A DNA stretch of 38,051 nucleotides from Mollicutes bacterium (GCA_003559495.1 PWLE01000033.1:1-38051); one strand, 5' to 3'. Counted from the first letter of the stretch, positions 2,015 through 17,546 are shown. Notes: generated by a model not told the origin, from the letters alone. Numbers and translations are program-made.

Positions 2015-2717
2015 TATATCCTCCAAATCTTCTTTCCCTTTTATTATAAACCCGCAAAGCTTCTTCTAAATCTTCTTTCCCAAAATCAGGAAAATAAACT
2101 TCCGAAAAATAAAGCTCCGCATATGCTAATTGATACAACATAAAATTACTAATCCGCTGTTCACCACTCGTCCTAATTAACAAATCAATTGGTGGCAAAG
2201 ATTGGTATAAATATTGATAAAATGTTTTCTCATCAACCATATCAATATTAACACGATTGTTAATAATATCATAATACATTTTTTTACTCGCTGCAATAAT
2301 TTCCCTTTGGCCACCATAATTCAAACATATATTTAATGTTTTCCCTCTAAAATCTTTTGTTTTTTCCGTAATATTTTCAATAATATCATTAATCTCTTGA
2401 CTTAATGGTTCTCGTTCTCCCGAAACAACCATTCGAATTTGATCTTTTTGAAATCGCACAAAATCTTTTTGAAACTTTTTTTTAATTAATTTCATCAAAA
2501 AATTAACTTCCTTTTTACCCCGCTTAAAATTTTCGGTTGAAAAAACAAAAAGACTTAAATAAGCAATCCCTTTTGCAAAAACTAAATCAATAATTTCATC
2601 TAAATTTTCAGCGCCTGCTAAATGACCAGCACTTCTTTGTAATCCTCTATCTTGCGCCCAACGACCATTACCATCAACAATGATACCAATATGATTTGGT
2701 ATTTTTTCATAATCCAT
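1992..2717 (-). CDS. uppS: Undecaprenyl/polyprenyl diphosphate synthase
   Basis: PNHIGIIVDGNGRWA, FSTENF, DLLIRTSGEQRISNF and C-terminal RRFGG. Confidence 0.96.
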   Translation of the reverse strand: MDYEKIPNHIGIIVDGNGRWAQDRGLQRSAGHLAGAENLDEIIDLVFAKGIAYLSLFVFSTENFKRGKKEVNFLMKLIKKKFQKDFVRFQKDQIRMVVSGEREPLSQEINDIIENITEKTKDFRGKTLNICLNYGGQREIIAASKKMYYDIINNRVNIDMVDEKTFYQYLYQSLPPIDLLIRTSGEQRISNFMLYQLAYAELYFSEVYFPDFGKEDLEEALRVYNKRERRFGGYNGSKSNS

Positions 2718-2732
2718 TTTTAAACTCCTATC

Positions 2733-3671
2733 TCAAGTAACTTTTATTTGCTTTTTACTAATAACTATTAAAACACCAGCAAAAAGCAATATTCCAATTA
2801 CACTTAAAATTATAATTCCTGTGATACTAGGACTTTTTTCATCTTTCGTAATAATTTTTTCATCAATTTCATAATCTTCATTAACAATTTCCTTAGTATC
2901 AAAATCATCAGTTTTGTAGGCAACTTGAAAATAACTTTCGCTATTTGCTGTAAAAACAATATAATTATCTTCAATCATAAAGTCTATTTCACGAATTTGA
3001 ATAACCTCACGATTAAAACTTTCAATTTGCAGTAAAGTAAATTTTTCCAAATCATCAGGAACTGGATAATAAACTTTTACAGGATCCCAAAAATCACGAA
3101 TAACTCTTTCTGATGTTCGCCACTGATAATCCATTGTTTTTTTGGCAGCACCAATATAGAAAATATCCAAACCTAATGATTCAACTGGCATATCATCAGT
3201 ATAATCAGCAATTTGACGATAAATATTACTATGCATATCTTCATTAATAAGCTTTGTATTAACATAATAAGATAAGCGACTCAAATCATCATTAATTTTA
3301 GGCATTAATTGTTCTTTTGTAGAAGAAAAACCAACATCTAAACGTACTTTTTCGCCAGTAACAGACAATTCATCAATCGTCACATAATAAGGATCGTCAC
3401 TTACTGGCATAAAAACATCAACCTCATAATCAATTTGCATCGGTGTAAAAAAAGGGATTTCAAAATTTTCAGCAATCATATTTTCATCAGCATCATAATG
3501 ATATATTTGATGATAATAATTCTTAGGATATTCTATAATCATAATATCATAATCTTCAGCATCATAATAAAGCAAATATAAACGACCATCCTCATCAAAA
3601 TGAGGACAGGCATTAACTATTATTGGTATAAATAAAATGAAAATTAATACTAATAAACTAATTTTTTTCAT
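2733..3671 (-). CDS. Hypothetical exported protein with a signal peptide and C-terminal membrane anchor
   Basis: Likely start ATG 3671 (MKKISLLVLIFILFIPIIVNA-CPH). Acidic/Tyr-rich body, C-terminal hydrophobic helix plus basic tail, no LPxTG. Overlaps the end of the upstream gene. Confidence 0.7.
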   Translation of the reverse strand: MKKISLLVLIFILFIPIIVNACPHFDEDGRLYLLYYDAEDYDIMIIEYPKNYYHQIYHYDADENMIAENFEIPFFTPMQIDYEVDVFMPVSDDPYYVTIDELSVTGEKVRLDVGFSSTKEQLMPKINDDLSRLSYYVNTKLINEDMHSNIYRQIADYTDDMPVESLGLDIFYIGAAKKTMDYQWRTSERVIRDFWDPVKVYYPVPDDLEKFTLLQIESFNREVIQIREIDFMIEDNYIVFTANSESYFQVAYKTDDFDTKEIVNEDYEIDEKIITKDEKSPSITGIIILSVIGILLFAGVLIVISKKQIKVT

Positions 3672-4752
3672 GCTCACTTCTCTCTTTCCAAGGAATCGTA
3701 ACAAAAGCCGCAATTGTTATAGGAATAGCAAATAACAAACCAATACTTCCCGCCACCGCTCGTACTACTTCGGTAGCAAAAAAATCTAAATTAACAATAT
3801 GATGAAAAGAAGTCCCAAAGCCCACAAACAACAACAACATCGTTAAGGCGCCACCAGCATAAGCTAATACCAGTGTATTAATCATCGTTCCCATAATATC
3901 ATGACCAATATTAAAACCCGCCTTAATCATATTTTTAGCAGAAATATTGGGGTTTTCTCTTTGTAGTTCTGTTAAAGAAGAAGCAATAGAAATTGCCACA
4001 TCCATAGCTGCTCCTAAAGCACCAATTATAATCCCCGCAAATAATAAACCACGAAAATCAAAAGCTATTGCATCCGGTAAATATAAAAGCATCGAAGCAT
4101 CGGGCGAACTAAAACCACTTAAGCGCGCAACAATTCCAAAAATATAAGCAATTAAACCACCTAAAACCAAACCTCCCGATGTACCAATTGTTGCCGAAAT
4201 CGTTTTTTTATTAATACCAGCAATGATAAAAAAAGTAATTACTGTTGCAATAGTACAAACTAAAATAGAAGCTAAAATCGGACTTATTCCTTGTAACAAT
4301 AAAGGAATCATAATAAATACAATTAAACTTAAGGTAATGCATAATGCTAAAAGTGATTTTAATCCTTTCATGCCACCAATTAAGATAACACAAACTAAAA
4401 AAATTAAAAGTAACATTAGCATGGCATTCATATTATCATAACCGATAAAATAAAAACTATCTTCTTCATAATGAACACTAATCGTAGTTCCTTCTTGCAA
4501 AGGCATATCATATCGCACATCCCCTGTTAAATGATTAGTAATTGTTGTTTGAACGCCCCGATAATCACGATTTAAAATTTCAATTTCCGCTTCCTGCCAT
4601 ACCCTTTCTTGACCATCTTCAACCATTGTAAACTTTTCTACTTCTAAAACCCGCGCACGATATATATCATACTGATACTCCTCATCAATAATAGCTTGAA
4701 CTGAAAAAGAAGGTATTAAAAATAAAACTAAAAATATAATTATTTTTTTCAT
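3658..4752 (-). CDS. YibE/F family membrane protein
   Basis: Exported N-terminal domain, then GGMKGLKSLLAL, GIIIGALGAAMDVAISIAS, IGHDIMGTMINTLVLAYAG, which are typical of YibE/F proteins. Confidence 0.85.
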   Translation of the reverse strand: MKKIIIFLVLFLIPSFSVQAIIDEEYQYDIYRARVLEVEKFTMVEDGQERVWQEAEIEILNRDYRGVQTTITNHLTGDVRYDMPLQEGTTISVHYEEDSFYFIGYDNMNAMLMLLLIFLVCVILIGGMKGLKSLLALCITLSLIVFIMIPLLLQGISPILASILVCTIATVITFFIIAGINKKTISATIGTSGGLVLGGLIAYIFGIVARLSGFSSPDASMLLYLPDAIAFDFRGLLFAGIIIGALGAAMDVAISIASSLTELQRENPNISAKNMIKAGFNIGHDIMGTMINTLVLAYAGGALTMLLLFVGFGTSFHHIVNLDFFATEVVRAVAGSIGLLFAIPITIAAFVTIPWKERSEHEKN

Positions 4753-9405: not shown

Positions 9406-9924
9406 TTAAATTATTTTCATAATTTTTTCTAGTTGTTTACGTTCTTTTTTTCGCACACCGCGAGCACTTTTATATCCGACACTAATAATTAATCGAATTC
9501 TTTTTTCATCAGGAATATTTAAAGCTTTTTTAATCGGTTTTTCATGAAAAAGACCTAACATACAAGTTCCTAATCCCATTTCGGTCGCTGCTAAACATAT
9601 ATAAGATGCCACAATACCAATATCAATTTTGGTATAATCTTGCACCTTAAAATTATTAATAACCCGCACCGGAATACAAGCATCTTGTTCAATTATTACA
9701 ATAAAAGCACCAGCCTTTTCATTAAACTTTTGCACTGACTTTGCTACTTCTTTTATTTTTTCATCACTAGAAACAATATAAAAGAAATAGGGTTGGGCGT
9801 TGCAAGCTGATGGTGCTAAACGTGCTTGCGCAATTATTTTTTCTAAATCAGCTTTCGAAACCGCCTTACCACTAAAATTACGACAGCTTTCTCTTTGGTT
9901 AATTAATTGGGAAAAGTTCATCAT
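9406..9924 (-). CDS. Nitroreductase family flavoprotein
   Basis: RESCRNF, ARLAPSACNAQP and DIGIVASYICLAATEMGLGTCMLG. Confidence 0.92.
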   Translation of the reverse strand: MMNFSQLINQRESCRNFSGKAVSKADLEKIIAQARLAPSACNAQPYFFYIVSSDEKIKEVAKSVQKFNEKAGAFIVIIEQDACIPVRVINNFKVQDYTKIDIGIVASYICLAATEMGLGTCMLGLFHEKPIKKALNIPDEKRIRLIISVGYKSARGVRKKERKQLEKIMKII

Positions 9925-9934
9925 TATCCCTCCT

Positions 9935-10798
9935 TTAAAATATCAAAAACAATAAAGTTAAAATTGTCAAAACAATTAAAATCAAAATATCTTCAGTATA
10001 CCAATAACCTCGTACATTATTATCATTATCTTTTTTTTGCGAAGCTGCTCTTTTTAGTTTCACCACTTGTTCTTGTATTTCTTTTGTTTTTTGATACTTA
10101 TTTTTAATCATTTCACCATCAGTACTGGTTGTTTTTAAAAGTAATGGCAATTGTTTTTCATATAATTTTTCTAACAACATATACATTTTGCTATCACTCA
10201 TAATAGGAAAATAAACAACTTGCAACTCGTTAGTAAACTCCTTTAACCAACGATCAATGGTTGCTTGATCAAAAGATTCTAAATGCTCTGTATTCAATGC
10301 TAATCCAAATTGACCTTTATAATGCTCTCGTTTTGCTATCATAGAAAATAAATGTTTTATTTGCTCTTTCTTATGACCAAAATTGTTTTTTTTATAAGGT
10401 TGATTTTCAATTAAAACTGTGGCATCCAATGCCATTAAAGATAATATTAAATCTACTAAATGGCCGATTATTTTATTTTTTTCAATTTCTGATAAGGGTT
10501 GGAAAGTTTTTAAATCACCTGGTTTAATAACAAAAACTAATGGTTCAGACTGCAAAACGGTAGCTAGTTCAATAATTAATTCCTTGTTAATAATAGTATT
10601 TTTTTTATCAAATTTAGGGGTTGGTAATTGAAAAATTAAATCTTGGGTTACTGATAAGTTAGTATTATGCAAAGCTTGCCGTTGAACCATTAATTGCACT
10701 AAAGAACAATTTAATTCTTTTGCTAATTGCAATTGTTGCAACCAATTAAAAGATTCCGCATTTAACGCTAATCCTATTACATTGGTCTTGGCAAACAT
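9935..10798 (-). CDS. Degenerate endonuclease IV / xylose-isomerase-like TIM barrel protein with a C-terminal transmembrane helix
   Basis: AKELNCSLVQL, VLIENQP..NNFGHKKEQI and GLALNTEHL echo Nfo motifs (LLEN.AG.G..G..FE, G.C.DTCH). Ends in ILILIVLTILTLLFLIF. Confidence 0.5.
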   Translation of the reverse strand: MFAKTNVIGLALNAESFNWLQQLQLAKELNCSLVQLMVQRQALHNTNLSVTQDLIFQLPTPKFDKKNTIINKELIIELATVLQSEPLVFVIKPGDLKTFQPLSEIEKNKIIGHLVDLILSLMALDATVLIENQPYKKNNFGHKKEQIKHLFSMIAKREHYKGQFGLALNTEHLESFDQATIDRWLKEFTNELQVVYFPIMSDSKMYMLLEKLYEKQLPLLLKTTSTDGEMIKNKYQKTKEIQEQVVKLKRAASQKKDNDNNVRGYWYTEDILILIVLTILTLLFLIF

Positions 10799-10823
10799 GA
10801 AACCACCCCATTACTAAACAATA

Positions 10824-11453
10824 TTAGTTTAGTTGCATCTCTTCCTTTAAACGCGTAAAAAAGTCATCTAAATATGCTTGGCGTTCTTTTCCGATTCGTT
10901 TTCCTTCTTTCGTATATAATTTTTTATCCATATTTTTTAAAGCAAGATCATATTCCATAATTGGGTTGTGTTTACTAACATCTTTAATATAACTACATTT
11001 AGGCATTTTATAATCTAGTGTTAGCCGCTGGCCATGTTGACCGGCAAACATAAAATTACGCGCAATCCCAACTGCTCCCATACAATCAATTTTATCGGCA
11101 TCAAACAATATTTTCGCCTCGATTGTTTTTGGTTCTTCAGCCGTTCTTTTGCGATGTGCTAAAATACAATGCTTTACTTCTTCGATTTTGACAAAGTTTT
11201 TTTCTTTTAAAATTGCCACCGCCATTTTCGCACCTTCAATCGCATGATCAACTTTACCGGTTTTATCTTTATTCTCTTTTTCCCTACCAATGTCATGTAA
11301 AAGTGCCGCCACTCTTAAAACTTCCATATCAACATTGCGTTCTTTGGCAGCGATTTGCAAACAAAGATTATACACACGCATAATATGTTCCCAGCTGTGA
11401 CTATTACAACTAATTTCTTTTTGCACAATCGCCATTATTTCTTGCTCACTCAT
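10824..11453 (-). CDS. HD-domain phosphohydrolase (YedJ-like)
   Basis: HSWEHIMRV, LLHDIGR, DHA, ILAHR and DADKIDCMGAVGIAR. ATGA overlap with the rnfB stop. Confidence 0.9.
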   Translation of the reverse strand: MSEQEIMAIVQKEISCNSHSWEHIMRVYNLCLQIAAKERNVDMEVLRVAALLHDIGREKENKDKTGKVDHAIEGAKMAVAILKEKNFVKIEEVKHCILAHRKRTAEEPKTIEAKILFDADKIDCMGAVGIARNFMFAGQHGQRLTLDYKMPKCSYIKDVSKHNPIMEYDLALKNMDKKLYTKEGKRIGKERQAYLDDFFTRLKEEMQLN

Positions 11454-11719
11454 ATTAAATTATTCCCCCGCAAATAAGCTTCCATCTCTCGTAGAGCATC
11501 ACCACGTAGCGGTTTACATTTTTGATATAACTGTGGATCATCAACCATCGCATCAGCCAAACCCTTACAAGTTCCATAACCACAAACACCACAATTATAA
11601 CCGGGCAGGAGCTTATCAAACTCATCACTTTTATTTTCTACTTTAAAACGATCGGCGACAAACAAAATTAAAAGTGATAATAATAATGCCGTTACCGTGA
11701 TAATAATAATACCAATCAT
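11450..11719 (-). CDS. rnfB: Truncated RnfB (TM helix plus N-terminal FeS domain only)
   Basis: TM helix, then LLPGYNCGVCGYGTC...CKP (RnfB N-terminal cluster motif). No downstream ferredoxin motifs. Likely start ATG 11719 (RBS AAGGGGTG), 89 aa. Confidence 0.8.
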   Translation of the reverse strand: MIGIIIITVTALLLSLLILFVADRFKVENKSDEFDKLLPGYNCGVCGYGTCKGLADAMVDDPQLYQKCKPLRGDALREMEAYLRGNNLI

Positions 11720-11826
11720 TTGCGACACCCCTTACAAAAATGACAATCACATTGTGTGTTGTTATTTATACGATACAATAAAATCGTAATAGCAATCATA
11801 AATAAAACTAATAAATATCCCATCAT
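11716..11826 (-). CDS. 36-aa membrane micro-protein with a Cys-rich tail
   Basis: MMGYLLVLFMIAITILLYRINNNTQCDCHFCKGCRK. ATGA overlaps with both the rnfA stop and the rnfB start. Not in the ORF track. Confidence 0.75.
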   Translation of the reverse strand: MMGYLLVLFMIAITILLYRINNNTQCDCHFCKGCRK

Positions 11827-12389
11827 AAGCCAAACCTACTAAAAATCATCGCCATAATACCCGCAATAATAAGGGCGATTGGCACACCTTGAAAACTAGC
11901 AAGCACCGGTCTTTGCGCCAATTTTTCCCGAATAGTCGCATAAATATAAATTAATATTGTAAAACCAAGCCCGCTTCCTAATATAAAAACAACTGTTTCA
12001 ATAAAATTATACTGATAATCAATCATCAAAAAAGCAATCCCTAAAACAGCACAGTTAGCGGCAATTAAGGGCAGGAAAATTCCCATTAATTCATAAATCT
12101 TAGGAAATTTTTTACGAATAATTATATTAATAGATTGAACAATAGAAGCAATTATTAAAACAAACAAAATTGTTCGCAAATACTCTGTCCCGGTCGGAAC
12201 TAAAACATAGTGATATAAAAAATAAGCAATTATACCACCAACAAACACGACAAAAGTAACTGATAATCCCATTCCTAAAGCACCTTTCTCCCTATGCGAT
12301 GTACCAATAAAAGGACAGATACCTAAAAACTTTGTTAAAATAATATTTTCTGTTAGAACACTAGCAATAAAAATACTAACTAGACTCAT
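11823..12389 (-). CDS. rnfA: Rnf complex subunit A
   Basis: ENIILTKFLGICPF and GIFLPLIAANCAVLG. Likely start ATG 12389. Confidence 0.93.
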   Translation of the reverse strand: MSLVSIFIASVLTENIILTKFLGICPFIGTSHREKGALGMGLSVTFVVFVGGIIAYFLYHYVLVPTGTEYLRTILFVLIIASIVQSINIIIRKKFPKIYELMGIFLPLIAANCAVLGIAFLMIDYQYNFIETVVFILGSGLGFTILIYIYATIREKLAQRPVLASFQGVPIALIIAGIMAMIFSRFGL

Positions 12390-13011
12390 GTAAATCACCC
12401 TTTATAAAAAATTTATTAAAAATAGCCAACAAAAAACCTAACGATAAAAATGCTCCCGCCGGGGTGGCAAAAATATTAAGATCCAAATTTACTGGCAAAA
12501 CTGTTATTATCCATTTATAACCTGTTATATTACTTAAATCATTCATAATCGTAATAGTATTATGAGCCAAGATTTCGCGCATTAAAGCAACCGCACTAAT
12601 AGTTAATGTAAAACCAAGGCCAATGCCAAGGGCATCTTGAACACTAACTAATACTTTTTCTTTACTAGCAACGGCAATTGCACGCCCTAAAACAATACAA
12701 TTAACGGTAATAAGGGGCAGATAAATTCCTAAAGTGGCATGCAAATCAGGAATAAATTCTTTTATTAACATATCAACCGTTGTCACAAAAGTAGCAATTA
12801 TTATAATAAACACTGGAATTTTAACATTTTCAGGAACCATTTTTTTAATTAACGAAACCGTTAAATTAGAAAAAAGCAAAACAAAAATAACACAAAATCC
12901 CATAATATAGGCACTTTCAAAAGTGTGTGAAACAGCTAATACCGGACATAATCCTAATAATAAAATAAAAACTGGATTTTGACTAATAATACCATCAATT
13001 ATTTTTTTCAC
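12376..13011 (-). CDS. rnfE: Rnf complex subunit E
   Basis: NPVFILLLGLCPVLAVS, LGIYLPLITVNCIVLGRA and PAGAFLSLG. Confidence 0.93.
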   Translation of the reverse strand: MKKIIDGIISQNPVFILLLGLCPVLAVSHTFESAYIMGFCVIFVLLFSNLTVSLIKKMVPENVKIPVFIIIIATFVTTVDMLIKEFIPDLHATLGIYLPLITVNCIVLGRAIAVASKEKVLVSVQDALGIGLGFTLTISAVALMREILAHNTITIMNDLSNITGYKWIITVLPVNLDLNIFATPAGAFLSLGFLLAIFNKFFIKGDLHESS

Positions 13012-13020
13012 AAATTCCTC

Positions 13021-13113
13021 CTAACTAATTAAAAGTTGCGTAAAATATATAATCACACCACATATTAAAGCCACTAATGTTAAAACCAAAACGCTTTTTT
13101 GTTTTTCACTCAT
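13021..13113 (-). CDS. 30-aa single-TM micro-protein resembling the RnfG N-terminal anchor
   Basis: MSEKQKSVLVLTLVALICGVIIYFTQLLIS. RBS GGAGGA 5 nt upstream, inside the rnfD end. The stop abuts the rnfE RBS. Sits in the canonical rnfG position. Not in the ORF track. Confidence 0.7.
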   Translation of the reverse strand: MSEKQKSVLVLTLVALICGVIIYFTQLLIS

Positions 13114-14506
13114 GATAATCCTCCAATACATTTCGTAAAATACTTTTTAAACTATCAGTTGTAATAGTAGCACTGCTAATTGTATCAACTTCTTCAAAAT
13201 CATCAGCCGCAATTAACTTTTCCACATAATTAGCATTTTCTACGCGCGCCCAATAACTTTCCGTTTGCGAGAGAATAACAAAATTAACCACTTCATCATT
13301 TTCTAAGATAACTTCAGCTTCAATCCACCCACTAAAACCTCTTTGCGAAACATGATATATCACTTGATTATCAACTTCTGCTACTTCATTAATTACAAAA
13401 TTAGCATCCTCATCTTTTTGATCAAAACCAGCGGCAACTAAAAAACTAATGCCGACAATTAAAATCCAAGCTAAAACAAAACCAGCCATTGATTTAGAAA
13501 AATTAAAACGAGCATAAAAACCAATTTTATCAAGAATAAACACTAATAAATTCATTGTCAAAATAGCAGTTAAAACGCCTTCTGGATAAGGGGATAAAAA
13601 TCGGAAAACAACCGTCAAAACACCTAAAAATAATCCAAACAATAACTGACCCACGGGTGTTGTCGGTGAAGTGACCGGATCGGTCGCCATAAAAACCGCC
13701 CCAAATAAAAGTCCACCACTAAAAATATGAAATAAAGGATACCAAGCACCAAAACCATGTAAAGTTCCAATCAAATAAGTCATAACAAATACCGTCGCCA
13801 CATAAGTAGTTGTTATGCGCCATTTAATCATACGATTAATAGCTAAGTAGAAAAAAGCCAAAATAATTAATAAAGCACTAGTTTCTCCTACTGAGCCTGG
13901 TATTGTTCCAATGAAAAAATCACTTAATCGACCATAAGGTTCCACTAAAGTTGCGTACCCGCCAATTCCTTCTACCTCCGTCGCCAATGGCGTCGCACCA
14001 CTAATTACATCCGCCTCATAAGGATTCAAATAACCGCCACTTTCAACAATATTAACTGAATAAATAGCCATAACAAATAAAACACCTAACAAGGCGGGAT
14101 TAAAAATATTATGACCAAAACCACCAAAAATTAATTTACCAATTGCCGTAGCTATAAAAGCACCTACTATTAAAATAAAAATTGGCGTATTTAATGGTAA
14201 AACTAAAGCAACAAACAAACCAGGCAGGAAAGCATATGATTTTTTAAAAGCCTCTTTAATATTTTGTTTGCGAAGAAAAAAGAAACTTATTTCTGTTAAA
14301 CAACTAGTTAAAACAGCAATTAAAATAAAAAACAAAGGATAAAAAATCATTATAAAATCATAATAACCCTCACGATATGGAATATAACCATTTTTATAAA
14401 TCGTAAAAATGATAATTGGCATTAACGCAATCAACAAATGATTCATAATTTGACTGGCGTTTTGACTATTTTTAATATAAGGTCCAGAAAAAGTTTTTAA
14501 GCTCAC
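13106..14506 (-). CDS. rnfD: Rnf subunit D fused to a C-terminal RnfG-like FMN-binding domain
   Basis: KLIFGGFGHNIFNPAL, flavinylation site DVISGATPL, GSVGETS and FMATDPVTSP. Then an extra TM and FMN-bind domain (GFSGWIEAEV...SQTES...VDTISSATITT). Confidence 0.9.
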   Translation of the reverse strand: MSLKTFSGPYIKNSQNASQIMNHLLIALMPIIIFTIYKNGYIPYREGYYDFIMIFYPLFFILIAVLTSCLTEISFFFLRKQNIKEAFKKSYAFLPGLFVALVLPLNTPIFILIVGAFIATAIGKLIFGGFGHNIFNPALLGVLFVMAIYSVNIVESGGYLNPYEADVISGATPLATEVEGIGGYATLVEPYGRLSDFFIGTIPGSVGETSALLIILAFFYLAINRMIKWRITTTYVATVFVMTYLIGTLHGFGAWYPLFHIFSGGLLFGAVFMATDPVTSPTTPVGQLLFGLFLGVLTVVFRFLSPYPEGVLTAILTMNLLVFILDKIGFYARFNFSKSMAGFVLAWILIVGISFLVAAGFDQKDEDANFVINEVAEVDNQVIYHVSQRGFSGWIEAEVILENDEVVNFVILSQTESYWARVENANYVEKLIAADDFEEVDTISSATITTDSLKSILRNVLEDYHE

Positions 14507-15738
14507 GCAATTTCCTCCTTTGCTCGTTGTACTTTATTACGCAAATTAATATTGGCAGGACAAACATAAGAACAAAGACCACATCCAACACACTTTTGCG
14601 GACGAAATTGCTTTAAATTATCAGTTGCCTCATTAATTAAAACTGGTGACAATTTAGCTGGACAAGCTAAAACACAAGCCCCGCAGCGAAGACAAGTTTC
14701 TTCTTTACACTCTTCTAAAGCAGTAATTATACTAACAGCCGTTAAATCACTACTGACTACTAATTCATAACTAGCAATGCTCTCCCCCATTAAAGGACCA
14801 TTGGCGATTAACATTTTAGAACCTTCTTCTAAGCCGCCTAAAAAATCAATAACATCACTAACCAACGTGCCATTTTTTACTAAAACATTAGCTGGTTTTT
14901 CTAATTTATCACCGCTAAAAGTAACCACTCTTTGTATAAGGGGCTGGTGATATTTTAAAGTTTCATAAATGGCATACATGGTCGCAACACCATTAACGAC
15001 AATTCCTTTTTCGATCGGATAATTTTTATATTTTTCTTTTTTAATTCGCCAAACTAAATCTCTCTCCCACCCCGAAGCATAATAATCAGGCACTTCTACT
15101 AATTTTAATTTAACATAAGTTCCAATATAATTTTTGATAATTTTTTTTATCAACAAATCATTTTTTTTAATTGCGATTATTCCTTCATTCATACCAAAAA
15201 TCTCCACTAAAGCATCCATTACCTCTAAAATTTCTTCACATTTGTTATTAATTAAAATTGCATCACTACTAGTATCTGGATCTGATTCCACGGCATTAAC
15301 AATTAATGTTTTTAAATCATTATCATATTTTACATAAGTCGGAAAGGCGGTACCACTTAATCCTACAACGCCACTTTCCTTTAACTTATTAATAACTTCT
15401 TCTTTAGTATAATCATATAATTGATATTCTTTATCATCTAACTGATCAACAAAATCATTTTCAATGACCAAGCATTTTACTTTTTTATTATTAAGATAAT
15501 ATTTTTGTTCAAAACCAAGCACCTTACCACTAATAGGAGCATGAAGGGGCACTTTTAAATCACCCTTGCTTTTAGCCACCATATCACCTTCAACAACATA
15601 GTCATCTTTTTTTACTAAAACCGTTATATCCTCACTTTTATGAGCCACAAGTGGCAAATAAACTTTATTAGGATTTAAATACTTTTTAAAAGGATAAATT
15701 TCCTTAATTGTTTTTTCTAAACGAATACCACGACTCAT
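14503..15738 (-). CDS. rnfC: Rnf subunit C (divergent)
   Basis: N-terminal LHAPISGKV, FPTYVK, SLBB region, two 4Fe-4S motifs (CLRCGACVLACP, CVGCGLCSYVCP). First gene of the operon. Confidence 0.88.
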   Translation of the reverse strand: MSRGIRLEKTIKEIYPFKKYLNPNKVYLPLVAHKSEDITVLVKKDDYVVEGDMVAKSKGDLKVPLHAPISGKVLGFEQKYYLNNKKVKCLVIENDFVDQLDDKEYQLYDYTKEEVINKLKESGVVGLSGTAFPTYVKYDNDLKTLIVNAVESDPDTSSDAILINNKCEEILEVMDALVEIFGMNEGIIAIKKNDLLIKKIIKNYIGTYVKLKLVEVPDYYASGWERDLVWRIKKEKYKNYPIEKGIVVNGVATMYAIYETLKYHQPLIQRVVTFSGDKLEKPANVLVKNGTLVSDVIDFLGGLEEGSKMLIANGPLMGESIASYELVVSSDLTAVSIITALEECKEETCLRCGACVLACPAKLSPVLINEATDNLKQFRPQKCVGCGLCSYVCPANINLRNKVQRAKEEIA

Positions 15739-15780: not shown

Positions 15781-15807
15781 AAAAAAAACAGCTAATTTTG
15801 CTGTTTT
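15781..15807 (-). terminator. Terminator overlapping the stop of the Clp-like ATPase gene
   Basis: AAAACAGC / GCTGTTTT inverted repeat followed by a U tract on the minus strand. Confidence 0.65.
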
Positions 15808-17546
15808 CTTGGCATTGTTTTTGTTTTTTGCAGTGTTTTTGTTTGATTTACCACAATATCCTCTTCAAAATCAATATCAAGTTGAGCATTTTTGTTTTCT
15901 AAATCTAATGCCATTAAAGGCGGAATAATGCGATCAGATAAAACTCGCAAAACATCACGCGCGCCATATTTTTCATAATTAATTTCCGAAATTAATTGTT
16001 CCAGCGCCGCCGGTTGCATATGAAATTGATAATCATAACCCCGTTCAACAAATTTTGCTTCTATTTTATCTAAACACATATCAATAATATCATAAATATT
16101 TTCTTTTTCTAAATGGCGAAAATAAACAATTTCATCAATACGATTAATAAACTCCGGTAACAAACGACTTTCAATCGCATCCTGATAAGCTTCCGCTTTA
16201 TTTAAATTATTGGCAAAACCAATCGGTGATTTACTTGCTTCAAAAGCGCCAATATTAGTTGTTAAAACAAAAATGACTTCACTAAAATCTATTTCCTTTT
16301 GCCGATTGTCACGTGCTTTTCCTTCATCAAAAATATGCAAAAAAAGATCTAATACTTGCGGATGAGCTTTTTCTATTTCGTCTAATAAAATTATAGCTTG
16401 CGGAGTATATGCTACGCGATCAAAAACTTTATTGTTACCATCATCATAACCAACATATCCTGGTGGCGAACCATGAATTTTACTAACACTATGTGATTCT
16501 TTATATTCACTCATATCCATTCTAATTAATTGATAATCAGCATATTTGCTAAGTAATTTAGCGGTTTCTGTTTTCCCAACCCCAGTTGGTCCAGCAAAAA
16601 GAAAAACTCCTTTCGCACCCGTTTCTTTTATGCCACTAAAATCCAAAACTTGCCAGCGACGGACAACTTGTTCGATTTGTGAATCTTGACCAACAATATT
16701 CTCCTTCAAATATATTGCCATTTTTTCAAAATCAATTTTTTTTGATTGCTCCCCTTCTGCTAATTGAAGCGGTTCTTTTTTTTGTAAAATTGGTTCTGCA
16801 TTTTCAAAGTTTTGCTCTTCATTCATTAATGCTTCATCAATCATTTCCCATAAATCTTCAATTTCAACTTCATTTTGATCAAAATTTGTTAACACCGCTT
16901 CAACAATTTCATCAATAAATTTTTGTTCTTTTTCTAAACTATCAAATAAAGAATAATGATATTGATCAGATTGTAATTCGGTAGTAAAAATTATTAATTC
17001 TTGACTGCCCAATATTTCTTTTTCATCCTCATTAGCATTTATGATATCAAGTAAACTTTCCATGTAACATAAGCCACCGATGCGAACTTCAATCGCCATT
17101 AAATCATTAGAACAATGATTTAAAGCCATCGTATCATATTTACAAATGTTAACAAGTTGCTTTTTAATTTTTTCAATTTTAGTTTTTCTTCTACTTATTG
17201 CTCTTGCTAAATTACTATCTAATCGCTTAATAATATCTTTAAAATCAACTGGCAATTCCTTTTTCTCTCCTAAATTAACAACACCATAATATAAATAAAG
17301 CAGTTGCGTTTGCAAACCGTAATGACCGAAATTTTTAAAATTGCGACGAAAATTCGGACATTCTTCATAATATTTTGTCATTAATATTAAAAAAGGATTA
17401 ATCTCAGCATCTTCTTGAAAGTACATTAAATTAAATATTTCATCTTTTTCGGTGAAATTACGCGCAATAATATTTCTTTCAATTCTTTCTACCGGAATAT
17501 TTTCCTTTTGTGCAAATGGCAATAACCTTCGATGTAATTCTTTCAT
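15792..17546 (-). CDS. Single-module Clp/Hsp100-type AAA+ ATPase (ClpA/B D2-like) with an unknown ~265-aa N-terminal domain
   Basis: IVGQ, Walker A GPTGVGKT, RMDMSEY, pore loop GSPPGYVGY, Walker B IILLDEIEKAH, TTNIG, IGF loop, PEFINRID and sensor-2 YGAR. No D1 module. Confidence 0.85.
   Translation of the reverse strand: MKELHRRLLPFAQKENIPVERIERNIIARNFTEKDEIFNLMYFQEDAEINPFLILMTKYYEECPNFRRNFKNFGHYGLQTQLLYLYYGVVNLGEKKELPVDFKDIIKRLDSNLARAISRRKTKIEKIKKQLVNICKYDTMALNHCSNDLMAIEVRIGGLCYMESLLDIINANEDEKEILGSQELIIFTTELQSDQYHYSLFDSLEKEQKFIDEIVEAVLTNFDQNEVEIEDLWEMIDEALMNEEQNFENAEPILQKKEPLQLAEGEQSKKIDFEKMAIYLKENIVGQDSQIEQVVRRWQVLDFSGIKETGAKGVFLFAGPTGVGKTETAKLLSKYADYQLIRMDMSEYKESHSVSKIHGSPPGYVGYDDGNNKVFDRVAYTPQAIILLDEIEKAHPQVLDLFLHIFDEGKARDNRQKEIDFSEVIFVLTTNIGAFEASKSPIGFANNLNKAEAYQDAIESRLLPEFINRIDEIVYFRHLEKENIYDIIDMCLDKIEAKFVERGYDYQFHMQPAALEQLISEINYEKYGARDVLRVLSDRIIPPLMALDLENKNAQLDIDFEEDIVVNQTKTLQKTKTMPRKQQN

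Follow-up and report, generated by a model that had tools for sequence, protein, structure and literature searches.

The Rnf complexes of known structure, those of Clostridium tetanomorphum (7ZC6), Acetobacterium woodii (9ERI), and Azotobacter vinelandii (8AHX), have homologues of RnfC, RnfD, the RnfG domain, RnfE, RnfA, and RnfB encoded in one operon. In current structural models, ferredoxin docks on the polyferredoxin portion of RnfB and RnfG is taken as one unit. An operon that bears on both points lies in a 38,051-nucleotide stretch of DNA (the window) from a Mollicutes bacterium (GCA_003559495.1, PWLE01000033.1:1-38051). We read it, with a probability of roughly 0.7, as encoding a functional, streamlined Rnf-type ion-translocating ferredoxin:NAD(P)+ oxidoreductase. 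Homologues of all six Rnf subunits are encoded together here as well, RnfG in the form of a fused flavin domain and a separate anchor. The window shares with the canonical systems the four RnfA/RnfE cysteines, both threonines for flavinylation, the Fe-S motifs of RnfC, and the mobile RnfB domain with its single cluster; unlike them, it lacks the RnfB domain with 2 to 7 clusters, has a split RnfG, encodes an extra cysteine-containing micro-protein, and has substituted motifs in RnfC. The preliminary description of this DNA had spoken of an undescribed system, which is too strong, as the operon is a variant of Rnf whose details we did not find described in the literature.

The operon occupies positions 11450 to 15738 and consists of seven translationally coupled open cistrons on the minus strand, without frameshifts or internal stops. 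Their order is rnfC, rnfD::G, mORF1, rnfE, rnfA, mORF2, and mini-rnfB. The listing of open reading frames (ORFs), Pfam and NCBIfam matches, and the reading of the junctions all agreed with the Rnf assignment, the gene order, and the 30-residue length of mORF1 that had been given before.

rnfC, 14503-15738, minus strand: 411 aa, with a barrel-sandwich N domain, a NuoF-like flavin/NAD domain, an SLBB domain, and two [4Fe-4S] motifs
rnfD::G, 13106-14506, minus strand: 466 aa, RnfD followed by an extra membrane helix and an RnfG-like domain binding flavin mononucleotide (FMN)
mORF1, 13021-13113, minus strand: 30 aa from ATG 13113 (13021-13131 in the ORF listing)
rnfE, 12376-13011, minus strand: 211 aa, PF02508
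rnfA, 11823-12389, minus strand: 188 aa from ATG 12389 (the ORF listing starts at GTG 12398)
mORF2, 11716-11826, minus strand: 36 aa, one membrane helix and then CxCxxCxxC
mini-rnfB, 11450-11719, minus strand: 89 aa from ATG 11719 (11450-11728 and 92 aa in the ORF listing)

The ATG of mORF1 at 13113 is preceded at 7 nt by GGAGG, mORF1 and the end of rnfD::G share 8 nt, and the mORF1 stop falls inside the AGGAGG that precedes rnfE. Two ATGA overlaps join the mORF2 ATG to the rnfA TGA and the rnfB ATG (11719) to the mORF2 TGA; the resulting 89 aa for RnfB is also the length in the gene calls of public homologues. We considered genetic code 4, with TGA read as Trp, and rejected it because the mORF1 and mORF2 frames and the gene ends of the homologues fit TGA as a stop. 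Wang et al. likewise report TGA as a stop in these lineages.

The window, with a G+C content of about 30% and nearly every gene on the minus strand, is contig C5 of a genome of 566,800 bases in 40 contigs, 82.7% complete. The data point to an uncultured RF39/UBA660-type bacterium of the class Bacilli as the host, and near-identical DNA is present in salt-lake and soda-lake metagenome runs. The comparison set comprised 43 distinct related loci (numbered L; L039 duplicates L024; genomes are numbered G), among which 35 distinct operons, the window included, have rnfB in view, with 10 in the window's family and 25 outside it. The same gene order was found in all nine remaining distinct operons of the family that have rnfB in view (L017-L025).

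Membrane core and RnfB

RnfE and RnfA both match PF02508. RnfE scores 211.7 bits with the RsxE subfamily model NF009070 (cut-off 184) and 190.6 with TIGR01948 (cut-off 213.4), and RnfA scores 208.9 with TIGR01943 (cut-off 229.3). RnfC (293 versus 246) and RnfD (209 versus 207) are above their NCBIfam cut-offs. Cysteines C22 and C105 of RnfE and C25 and C113 of RnfA are invariant in alignments of 17 rows each, and their positions fit the C25/C113 and C25/C108 pairs named for A. woodii, in keeping with the intact membrane relay proposed earlier.

RnfB has been described as having three parts: a helix in the membrane, a mobile single-[4Fe-4S] domain (FdI or B8), and a C-terminal domain with 2 to 7 clusters that is the docking site for ferredoxin and contacts RnfC (PMC12174285, PMC9588780, PMC11889175). 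Vitt et al. (PMC9588780) assign residues 35-95, with one mobile [4Fe-4S] cluster, to FdI, and in the work of Kumar et al. (PMC11889175) electrons go from the B8 domain to the RnfA/RnfE cluster, with B8 Cys mutants among the cofactor-removal variants tested. The RnfB of the window has the membrane helix and the single [4Fe-4S] (FdI/B8) domain and ends at residue 89. Its sole Pfam match is PF04060 (residues 41-73 of the 92-aa form), TIGR01944 matches at 47.7 bits (cut-off 68.7) over profile positions 5-80 of 190, and only the first ~86 residues of 8ahx_B and 7zc6_B can be aligned with it. Residues C43, C46, C51, and C68 (89-aa form) are invariant across the relatives. No CxxCxxCxxxC ferredoxin motif was found in the protein, which confirms the lack of a ferredoxin arm noticed in the preliminary description, and the search proposed there for a second rnfB failed to find another PF04060 gene in the own genome, an absence that is provisional at 83% completeness.

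The lack of the arm is not a peculiarity of this genome. RnfB has 84-126 aa in 32 of the 35 operons; two encode a form of 184-192 aa without ferredoxin motifs (L050 and L065), and a single one a form of 268 aa with three (L057). A phmmer search of the whole library gave 545 representatives at E ≤ 0.001, and among the best 150 of them 93 are no longer than 135 aa, some of which may be fragments. The short proteins are labeled either "hypothetical" or "(Fe-S)-binding protein," except for one that bears the name "RnfABCDGE type electron transport complex subunit B." Arm-less RnfB is the normal state in the class Bacilli as sampled, and the class apparently runs Rnf on the mobile single-cluster domain alone, a natural minimal input module.

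The RnfD fusion and the two small proteins

The rnfD product carries PF03116 at residues 7-328 and PF04205 at residues 390-462. In an AlphaFold model of the fusion (predicted local distance difference test score, 75.9), the core resembles 7zc6_D with a template modeling (TM) score of 0.81 and an extra helix spans residues 336-360. Compared with an RnfG profile, the fused tail gives a match (E 1.2e-13) across positions 71-170, which is the whole soluble part, and its best solved match is 8p2b_A (TM 0.81 over 81 columns, E 0.037). Consistent with the two flavinylation sites (SGAT and SSAT) noted at the outset, T172 in SGAT and both D441 and T447 in DTISSAT are invariant in 14 rows, T172 and T447 being the sites themselves, and the Dxx(S/T)xx(T/S) flavinylation motif is kept in 19 of 19 fusions. 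Four RnfD residues are tied to Na+ and riboflavin by Vitt et al. (PMC9588780), and three of them are conserved here (N124 as N136, E185 as E208, and D248 as D276).

All 25 operons from outside the window's family have a full rnfG and none of the 10 inside it does, and its place is taken by an ORF of 29-43 codons (longer where the gene finder picks an upstream start) in all 10 family operons and in the partial L038. mORF1 accordingly occurs in 11 of 11 distinct operons that have the fusion and lack a full rnfG. Its profile aligns with the N-terminal membrane helix of RnfG, columns 1-37 to 1-37 (hhalign, 96.2%; E 2.3e-9), and a tblastn search with mORF1 lands on the start of RnfG in L031 and L035; the gene holds the RnfG helix only and no flavin domain. 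As judged by these alignments, mORF1 is the retained membrane anchor of RnfG, a relic rnfG left in one RF39-type family after an RnfG-like domain was fused to RnfD, rather than the extra subunit for which it had been taken. The fusion and a full-length rnfG stand together in seven loci of other families (L026, L030-L033, L040, and L049); the fused module therefore arose beside the original gene. A tree of fused and free FMN-binding domains (23 rows, with four RnfG rows missing) was unresolved, with long branches and 10 of 20 inner branches open.

The membrane helices of RnfB and RnfG, together with one helix from RnfA and one from RnfE, make up a four-helix bundle (PMC9588780, Vitt et al.), and the RnfG and RnfB helices are reported to interact (PMC11889175, Kumar et al.). 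The RnfG helix may have been kept because this bundle needs it. Its retention after the flavin domain moved amounts to a natural dissection of RnfG and suggests a structural role of its own for the helix. NQR/RNF-like systems and RnfG proteins with multiple flavinylation (Meheust et al. 2021; 2024 preprint) are likewise cases of ApbE-dependent FMN domains newly attached to Rnf/Nqr membrane subunits. The cases described there are RnfG carrying more than one flavin domain and fusions of NqrB/RnfD with an NAD-binding domain in the cytosol; RnfD with an extracytosolic RnfG-like domain and a relic rnfG was not found among them, although Supplementary file 1 of Meheust et al. may list such cases.

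Rnf is very plastic in these lineages. RnfD carries two or three flavin domains in L021 and L033, and a 738-aa RnfD in L064 has an extension of another kind. L027 consists of rnfC-rnfD::FMN alone, without rnfE, rnfA, or rnfB nearby, L028 of rnfC-rnfD-rnfA-like alone, and L030 has diverged RnfE/RnfA. In L019, a 178-aa ORF of no recognised family lies between the relic rnfG and rnfE (2999-3535, oriented coordinates).

mORF2 was also more widespread than the preliminary description implied. Of the 35 operons, 25 carry a homologue of 33-79 aa in the place between rnfA and rnfB, 9 of these among the 10 family operons and 16 among the 25 others, so that mORF2 is no peculiarity of this genome, and three cysteines are invariant in 12 of the homologues. 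In a class sample of 201 evenly drawn genomes, with presence scored at E ≤ 0.001, the family was detected in 77 of 126 RnfD-positive and 2 of 75 RnfD-negative genomes, a link for which the Fisher value is overstated because the genomes are related. One of the two RnfD-negative matches is doubtful, as it lies inside a 571-aa frame, and the pattern spans 19 of 28 coded families besides the window's own row. Profile E-values of the small ORFs at matching places in related loci reach down to 1e-15 and 1e-18, and this recurrence argues that neither mORF1 nor mORF2 arose by chance. The earlier claim of two extra micro-subunits therefore holds in that both ORFs are real and conserved and fails for mORF1, which is the RnfG anchor. 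mORF2 itself is not obligatory, being absent from part of the Rnf-bearing genomes. When the operon is without it, a family member is found elsewhere in four of five such genomes, in varied and partly conserved contexts: in two genomes (L066 and L071) it lies between phosphoglucomutase and uracil-DNA glycosylase, followed by an energy-coupling factor (ECF) riboflavin S component, and in two others (L069 and L070) between MsrA and a deaminase.

We found no Pfam family above its cut-off for mORF2 or 11 homologues. FeoB_associated (PF12669) matched 6 of 12 members weakly (best E 0.0012; all under the 27-bit gathering cut-off, with 13.7 and 16.3 bits for two of them) and was the nearest named ESM-Atlas cluster (score 0.85), and the NqrM/DUF539 profile gave no match at E ≤ 10 for mORF2 or the 11 homologues. 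A search with the mORF2 profile returned 53 clusters, all without Pfam domains, the named ones being "hypothetical protein," and a description of the protein was not found in the literature. The idea that mORF2 is a split-off piece of RnfB was rejected, since mini-RnfB has its own helix and all four cysteines of the Fe-S domain.

By analogy, the most likely task of mORF2 is to handle metal or Fe-S where electrons enter through RnfB and RnfAE, either as an NqrM-like maturation factor or as a small accessory subunit. Its Cys tail should face the cytoplasm according to the positive-inside rule, the basic residues being C-terminal. NqrM has four conserved cysteines. It is a small membrane Fe-S maturation protein of NQR, which is related to Rnf, and like mORF2 it is a very small single-helix membrane protein with conserved Cys that is encoded with the pump genes; its proposed role, inserting the intramembrane Fe-S center of the RnfA/RnfE homologues, would fit mORF2 (PMC12174285). 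The mORF2 family would then be a candidate maturation factor for the corresponding center of Rnf, a kind of factor that the review, as far as its text was available, names as NqrM for NQR only (PMC12174285). Unlike NqrM, mORF2 shows no sequence match, is shorter, and lies between rnfA and rnfB, so the likeness is one of analogy and not of membership. The FeoB-associated proteins share with mORF2 one N-terminal helix followed by a short Cys-rich tail and differ in that the matches are below the cut-off and the genomic partner is Rnf and not FeoB; to our knowledge, that family is itself uncharacterised. RseC is larger than mORF2 and has a different domain order. It is likewise a small Cys-containing accessory membrane protein, genetically tied to Rnf, whose gene accompanies rnf/rsx in some bacteria (PMC9124969), and its family PF04246 was not found in this genome (83% complete).

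RnfC, proposed electron path, and alternative readings

Selection on the operon was estimated against three related species. The ratio of nonsynonymous to synonymous divergence (dN/dS, NG86) was 0.08-0.36 for RnfC (0.18-0.36), RnfD::G, RnfE, RnfA, and mORF1 (0.10-0.26), values that are rough since dS is near saturation (~1). For mORF2, 0.56-0.63 on 33-36 codons is uninformative, as is dN/dS for mORF2, rnfB, and the adjoining HD-domain gene against the sister genome G003, to which this block is 93-99% identical. The conservation check that had been suggested thus found five genes well below 1 and an architecture that recurs in relatives.

RnfC matches PF13375, PF01512, PF10531, and Fer4 families, reaches 293 bits with TIGR01945, and has a Complex1_51K domain matched end to end (positions 2-150 of 150, E 1e-27). 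As the preliminary description had noticed, its motifs are altered: relative to 7zc6_C, 9eri_C, and 8ahx_C, GGA(T/I)FP is replaced by SGTAFP and ECEPY by ESDPD, and both CxxCxxCxxxCP motifs are kept. Among 23 RnfC compared, the combination of GGxGFP to SG(T/S)(A/G)FP and ECEPY to ESDP(D/Y) occurs only in the four species of the window's clade (the window, L017, L018, and L038), and YPxGWE reads YYxxGWE in the three clade members where this motif was read. We take the substituted motifs to line the FMN/NADH pocket, by comparison with NuoF of complex I. The retained Fe-S motifs, the end-to-end NuoF-like domain, and the low dN/dS suggest that the changes in RnfC are a conserved new state and not decay. 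An acceptor other than the canonical one is possible at RnfC in this genus only (4 of 23 RnfC).

The own genome encodes a pyruvate:ferredoxin oxidoreductase (PFOR) of 1127 aa and a one-cluster ferredoxin of ~66 aa, and an ApbE flavin transferase is encoded on contig C18 (E 1e-60), so that two of the partners sought, apbE and ferredoxin, are present. The third, flavodoxin, was not found in this 83%-complete genome, nor was an [FeFe]-hydrogenase. The different donor and acceptor proposed earlier can accordingly be reduced to the acceptor, which may differ within the genus; with PFOR and the one-cluster ferredoxin at hand, no change of donor is needed. For ATP-synthase alpha/beta subunits (PF00006), five genomes from the genus and a sister genus were all without a match (G000, G001, G002, G003, and G126; 83, 89, 95, 76, and 97% complete), and the c subunit (PF00137) had no match in G000. 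As no rotary ATPase was found, Rnf is probably the main generator of membrane potential and the complex the main ion pump of the cell. Together with the genus-specific RnfC site, the apparent lack of a rotary ATPase would make this an extreme case for a minimal chemiosmotic cell. On contig C18 (~2342-4604; L002 and L004), three genes follow apbE. The first two encode proteins of 115 and 172 aa, the latter a polytopic membrane protein, and the third an FMN-binding lipoprotein of 160 aa (DAVSGAT), which is a second extracytosolic flavoprotein and does not match the RnfD-tail profile.

In the streamlined Rnf that we favor, and by homology to the solved Rnf complexes, PFOR would reduce the small one-cluster ferredoxin, which would directly reduce the mobile [4Fe-4S] domain of the 89-aa RnfB with no polyferredoxin arm in between. 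Electrons would then pass to the intramembrane Fe-S center held by the RnfA/RnfE cysteines, to the covalent FMN at T447 on the RnfD-fused RnfG-like domain, to the covalent FMN at T172 of RnfD, and on to riboflavin. From there they would reach the two [4Fe-4S] clusters of RnfC and finally its flavin site and NAD(P)+, with cations expelled during the passage and the direction being forward, from ferredoxin to NAD(P)+. The remodeling falls into four layers. Two of them, the lost RnfB arm and the Cys-rich micro-protein mORF2, are class-wide; the transfer of the RnfG flavin domain to RnfD, with the helix kept as a 30-aa protein, is family-wide; and a selected remodeling of the flavin/nicotinamide site of RnfC is specific to the genus.

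Several observations weigh against this interpretation, beside the roughness of the dN/dS values and the uninformative one for mORF2. RnfA and RnfB fall under their own NCBIfam cut-offs. The motifs substituted in RnfC are canonical in the other 19 of 23 RnfC and in the three solved chains, and NAD+ reduction may be altered or lost. C. tetanomorphum RnfD Asn90, a named part of the Na+ site, corresponds to Val102 here and is variable in 14 rows, which may bear on ion specificity. mORF2 is missing beside rnfB in 10 of the 35 operons, and 49 of the 126 genomes with Rnf lack the family. At 83% completeness, the absence of flavodoxin, hydrogenase, a second rnfB, and ATPase is provisional, and no RNA runs were among the runs listed as carrying the operon DNA. 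Finally, the assembly graph branches at the rnfA/mORF2 junction in 3 of 3 runs. Logan contigs end there, at 11835-11863, in all three, with a word depth ~3 times higher, and identity to the sister metagenome-assembled genome (L037/G003) jumps from ~80% to 93-99% at the junction. The block at 9900-11900 (mORF2, rnfB, the HD-domain gene, and a 287-aa ORF) is 93-99% identical to that genome and its flanks 57-89%, mostly 65-84%. The contig may join two strains at this point, or the block may be a recombined one shared by co-occurring strains.

Among the other readings, one turns on the RnfC substitutions: RnfC of this genus would no longer reduce NAD+ and would use another nucleotide or flavin (e.g., NADP+) or form a mostly structural, NqrA-like cap with Fe-S clusters only. 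NqrA, an RnfC homologue without cofactors, is a precedent (PMC9588780, PMC12174285), and the presence of the substitutions in all four clade species, with canonical motifs in the 19 others and the solved chains and a dN/dS in the clade that suggests a selected new state and not drift, agrees with such a change. Against it stand the Complex1_51K domain matched from end to end, the TIGR01945 score above the cut-off, and the two Fe-S motifs, which would make little sense without a downstream redox site; moreover, the motifs are assigned to the site by comparison with NuoF. We regard this change of RnfC as possible but doubtful. A wider version is a distinct Bacilli-type Rnf, in which mORF2 would be a seventh subunit that bears a redox-active metal or Fe-S center next to the single-cluster RnfB and replaces the polyferredoxin arm as the entry for ferredoxin or PFOR, RnfC of the genus would have a non-NAD+ acceptor, and the complex would be the sole pump of a cell lacking ATP synthase; this combination appears unlikely.

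The fused flavin domain invites a further reading, an outward electron conduit that would mainly lead from cytoplasmic NAD(P)H or ferredoxin to extracytosolic flavoproteins and acceptors (flavin-based extracellular electron transfer), with that domain as its exit instead of returning electrons to RnfD. The solved structure most like the tail (8p2b_A) comes from a multi-flavinylated protein, a proposal exists that RnfG with several flavins branches electrons off to acceptors outside (PMC8238504), and relatives have two or three flavin domains on RnfD (L021 and L033) or rnfC-rnfD::FMN without rnfE, rnfA, or rnfB nearby (the family member L027); a 160-aa FMN-binding lipoprotein is also encoded beside apbE on C18. 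However, the operon encodes a single flavin domain and no other RnfG domain, so that this domain must do the RnfG shuttle if RnfE, RnfA, and RnfB are used, and these three keep every ligand under purifying selection; with a neighborhood free of cytochromes or reductases, we consider such a conduit quite improbable. Very improbable is decay, in which a shrinking genome would be losing the operon piece by piece and the small ORFs would be functionless. The genome is indeed very small, Rnf is patchy (among the family genomes sampled, 8 of 20 have RnfD and 6 of 24 have RnfB), and L027 and L028 are partial clusters, but the reading frames are undisturbed, dN/dS is well below 1 in five genes, and all cofactor ligands, ribosome-binding sites, and ATGA overlaps are kept. 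Both small ORFs persist over saturated synonymous divergence, and mORF2 does so in several families. The preliminary description had named changes unique to this genome with dN/dS near 1 as the mark of decay; relatives share the changes, under purifying selection, the RnfC substitutions alone being genus-specific and common to four species.

Neighboring genes

A clear operon boundary was not found by a promoter/terminator consensus scan. Upstream, window positions 15792-17546 encode a protein of 584 aa that has one AAA_2 module and a ClpB D2-small domain; its gene stops 53 nt before rnfC. This gene is itself preceded by a promoter-like site and a strong hairpin resembling a terminator, suggesting that rnf may be cotranscribed with it. 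Downstream follows one more gene.

HD-domain gene, 10824-11453, minus strand: PF01966, overlapping the rnfB stop by 4 nt

It is possibly cotranscribed with rnf. An HD gene also lies beside rnfB in the sister species L017 and L018, the two in which this end of the operon was read.

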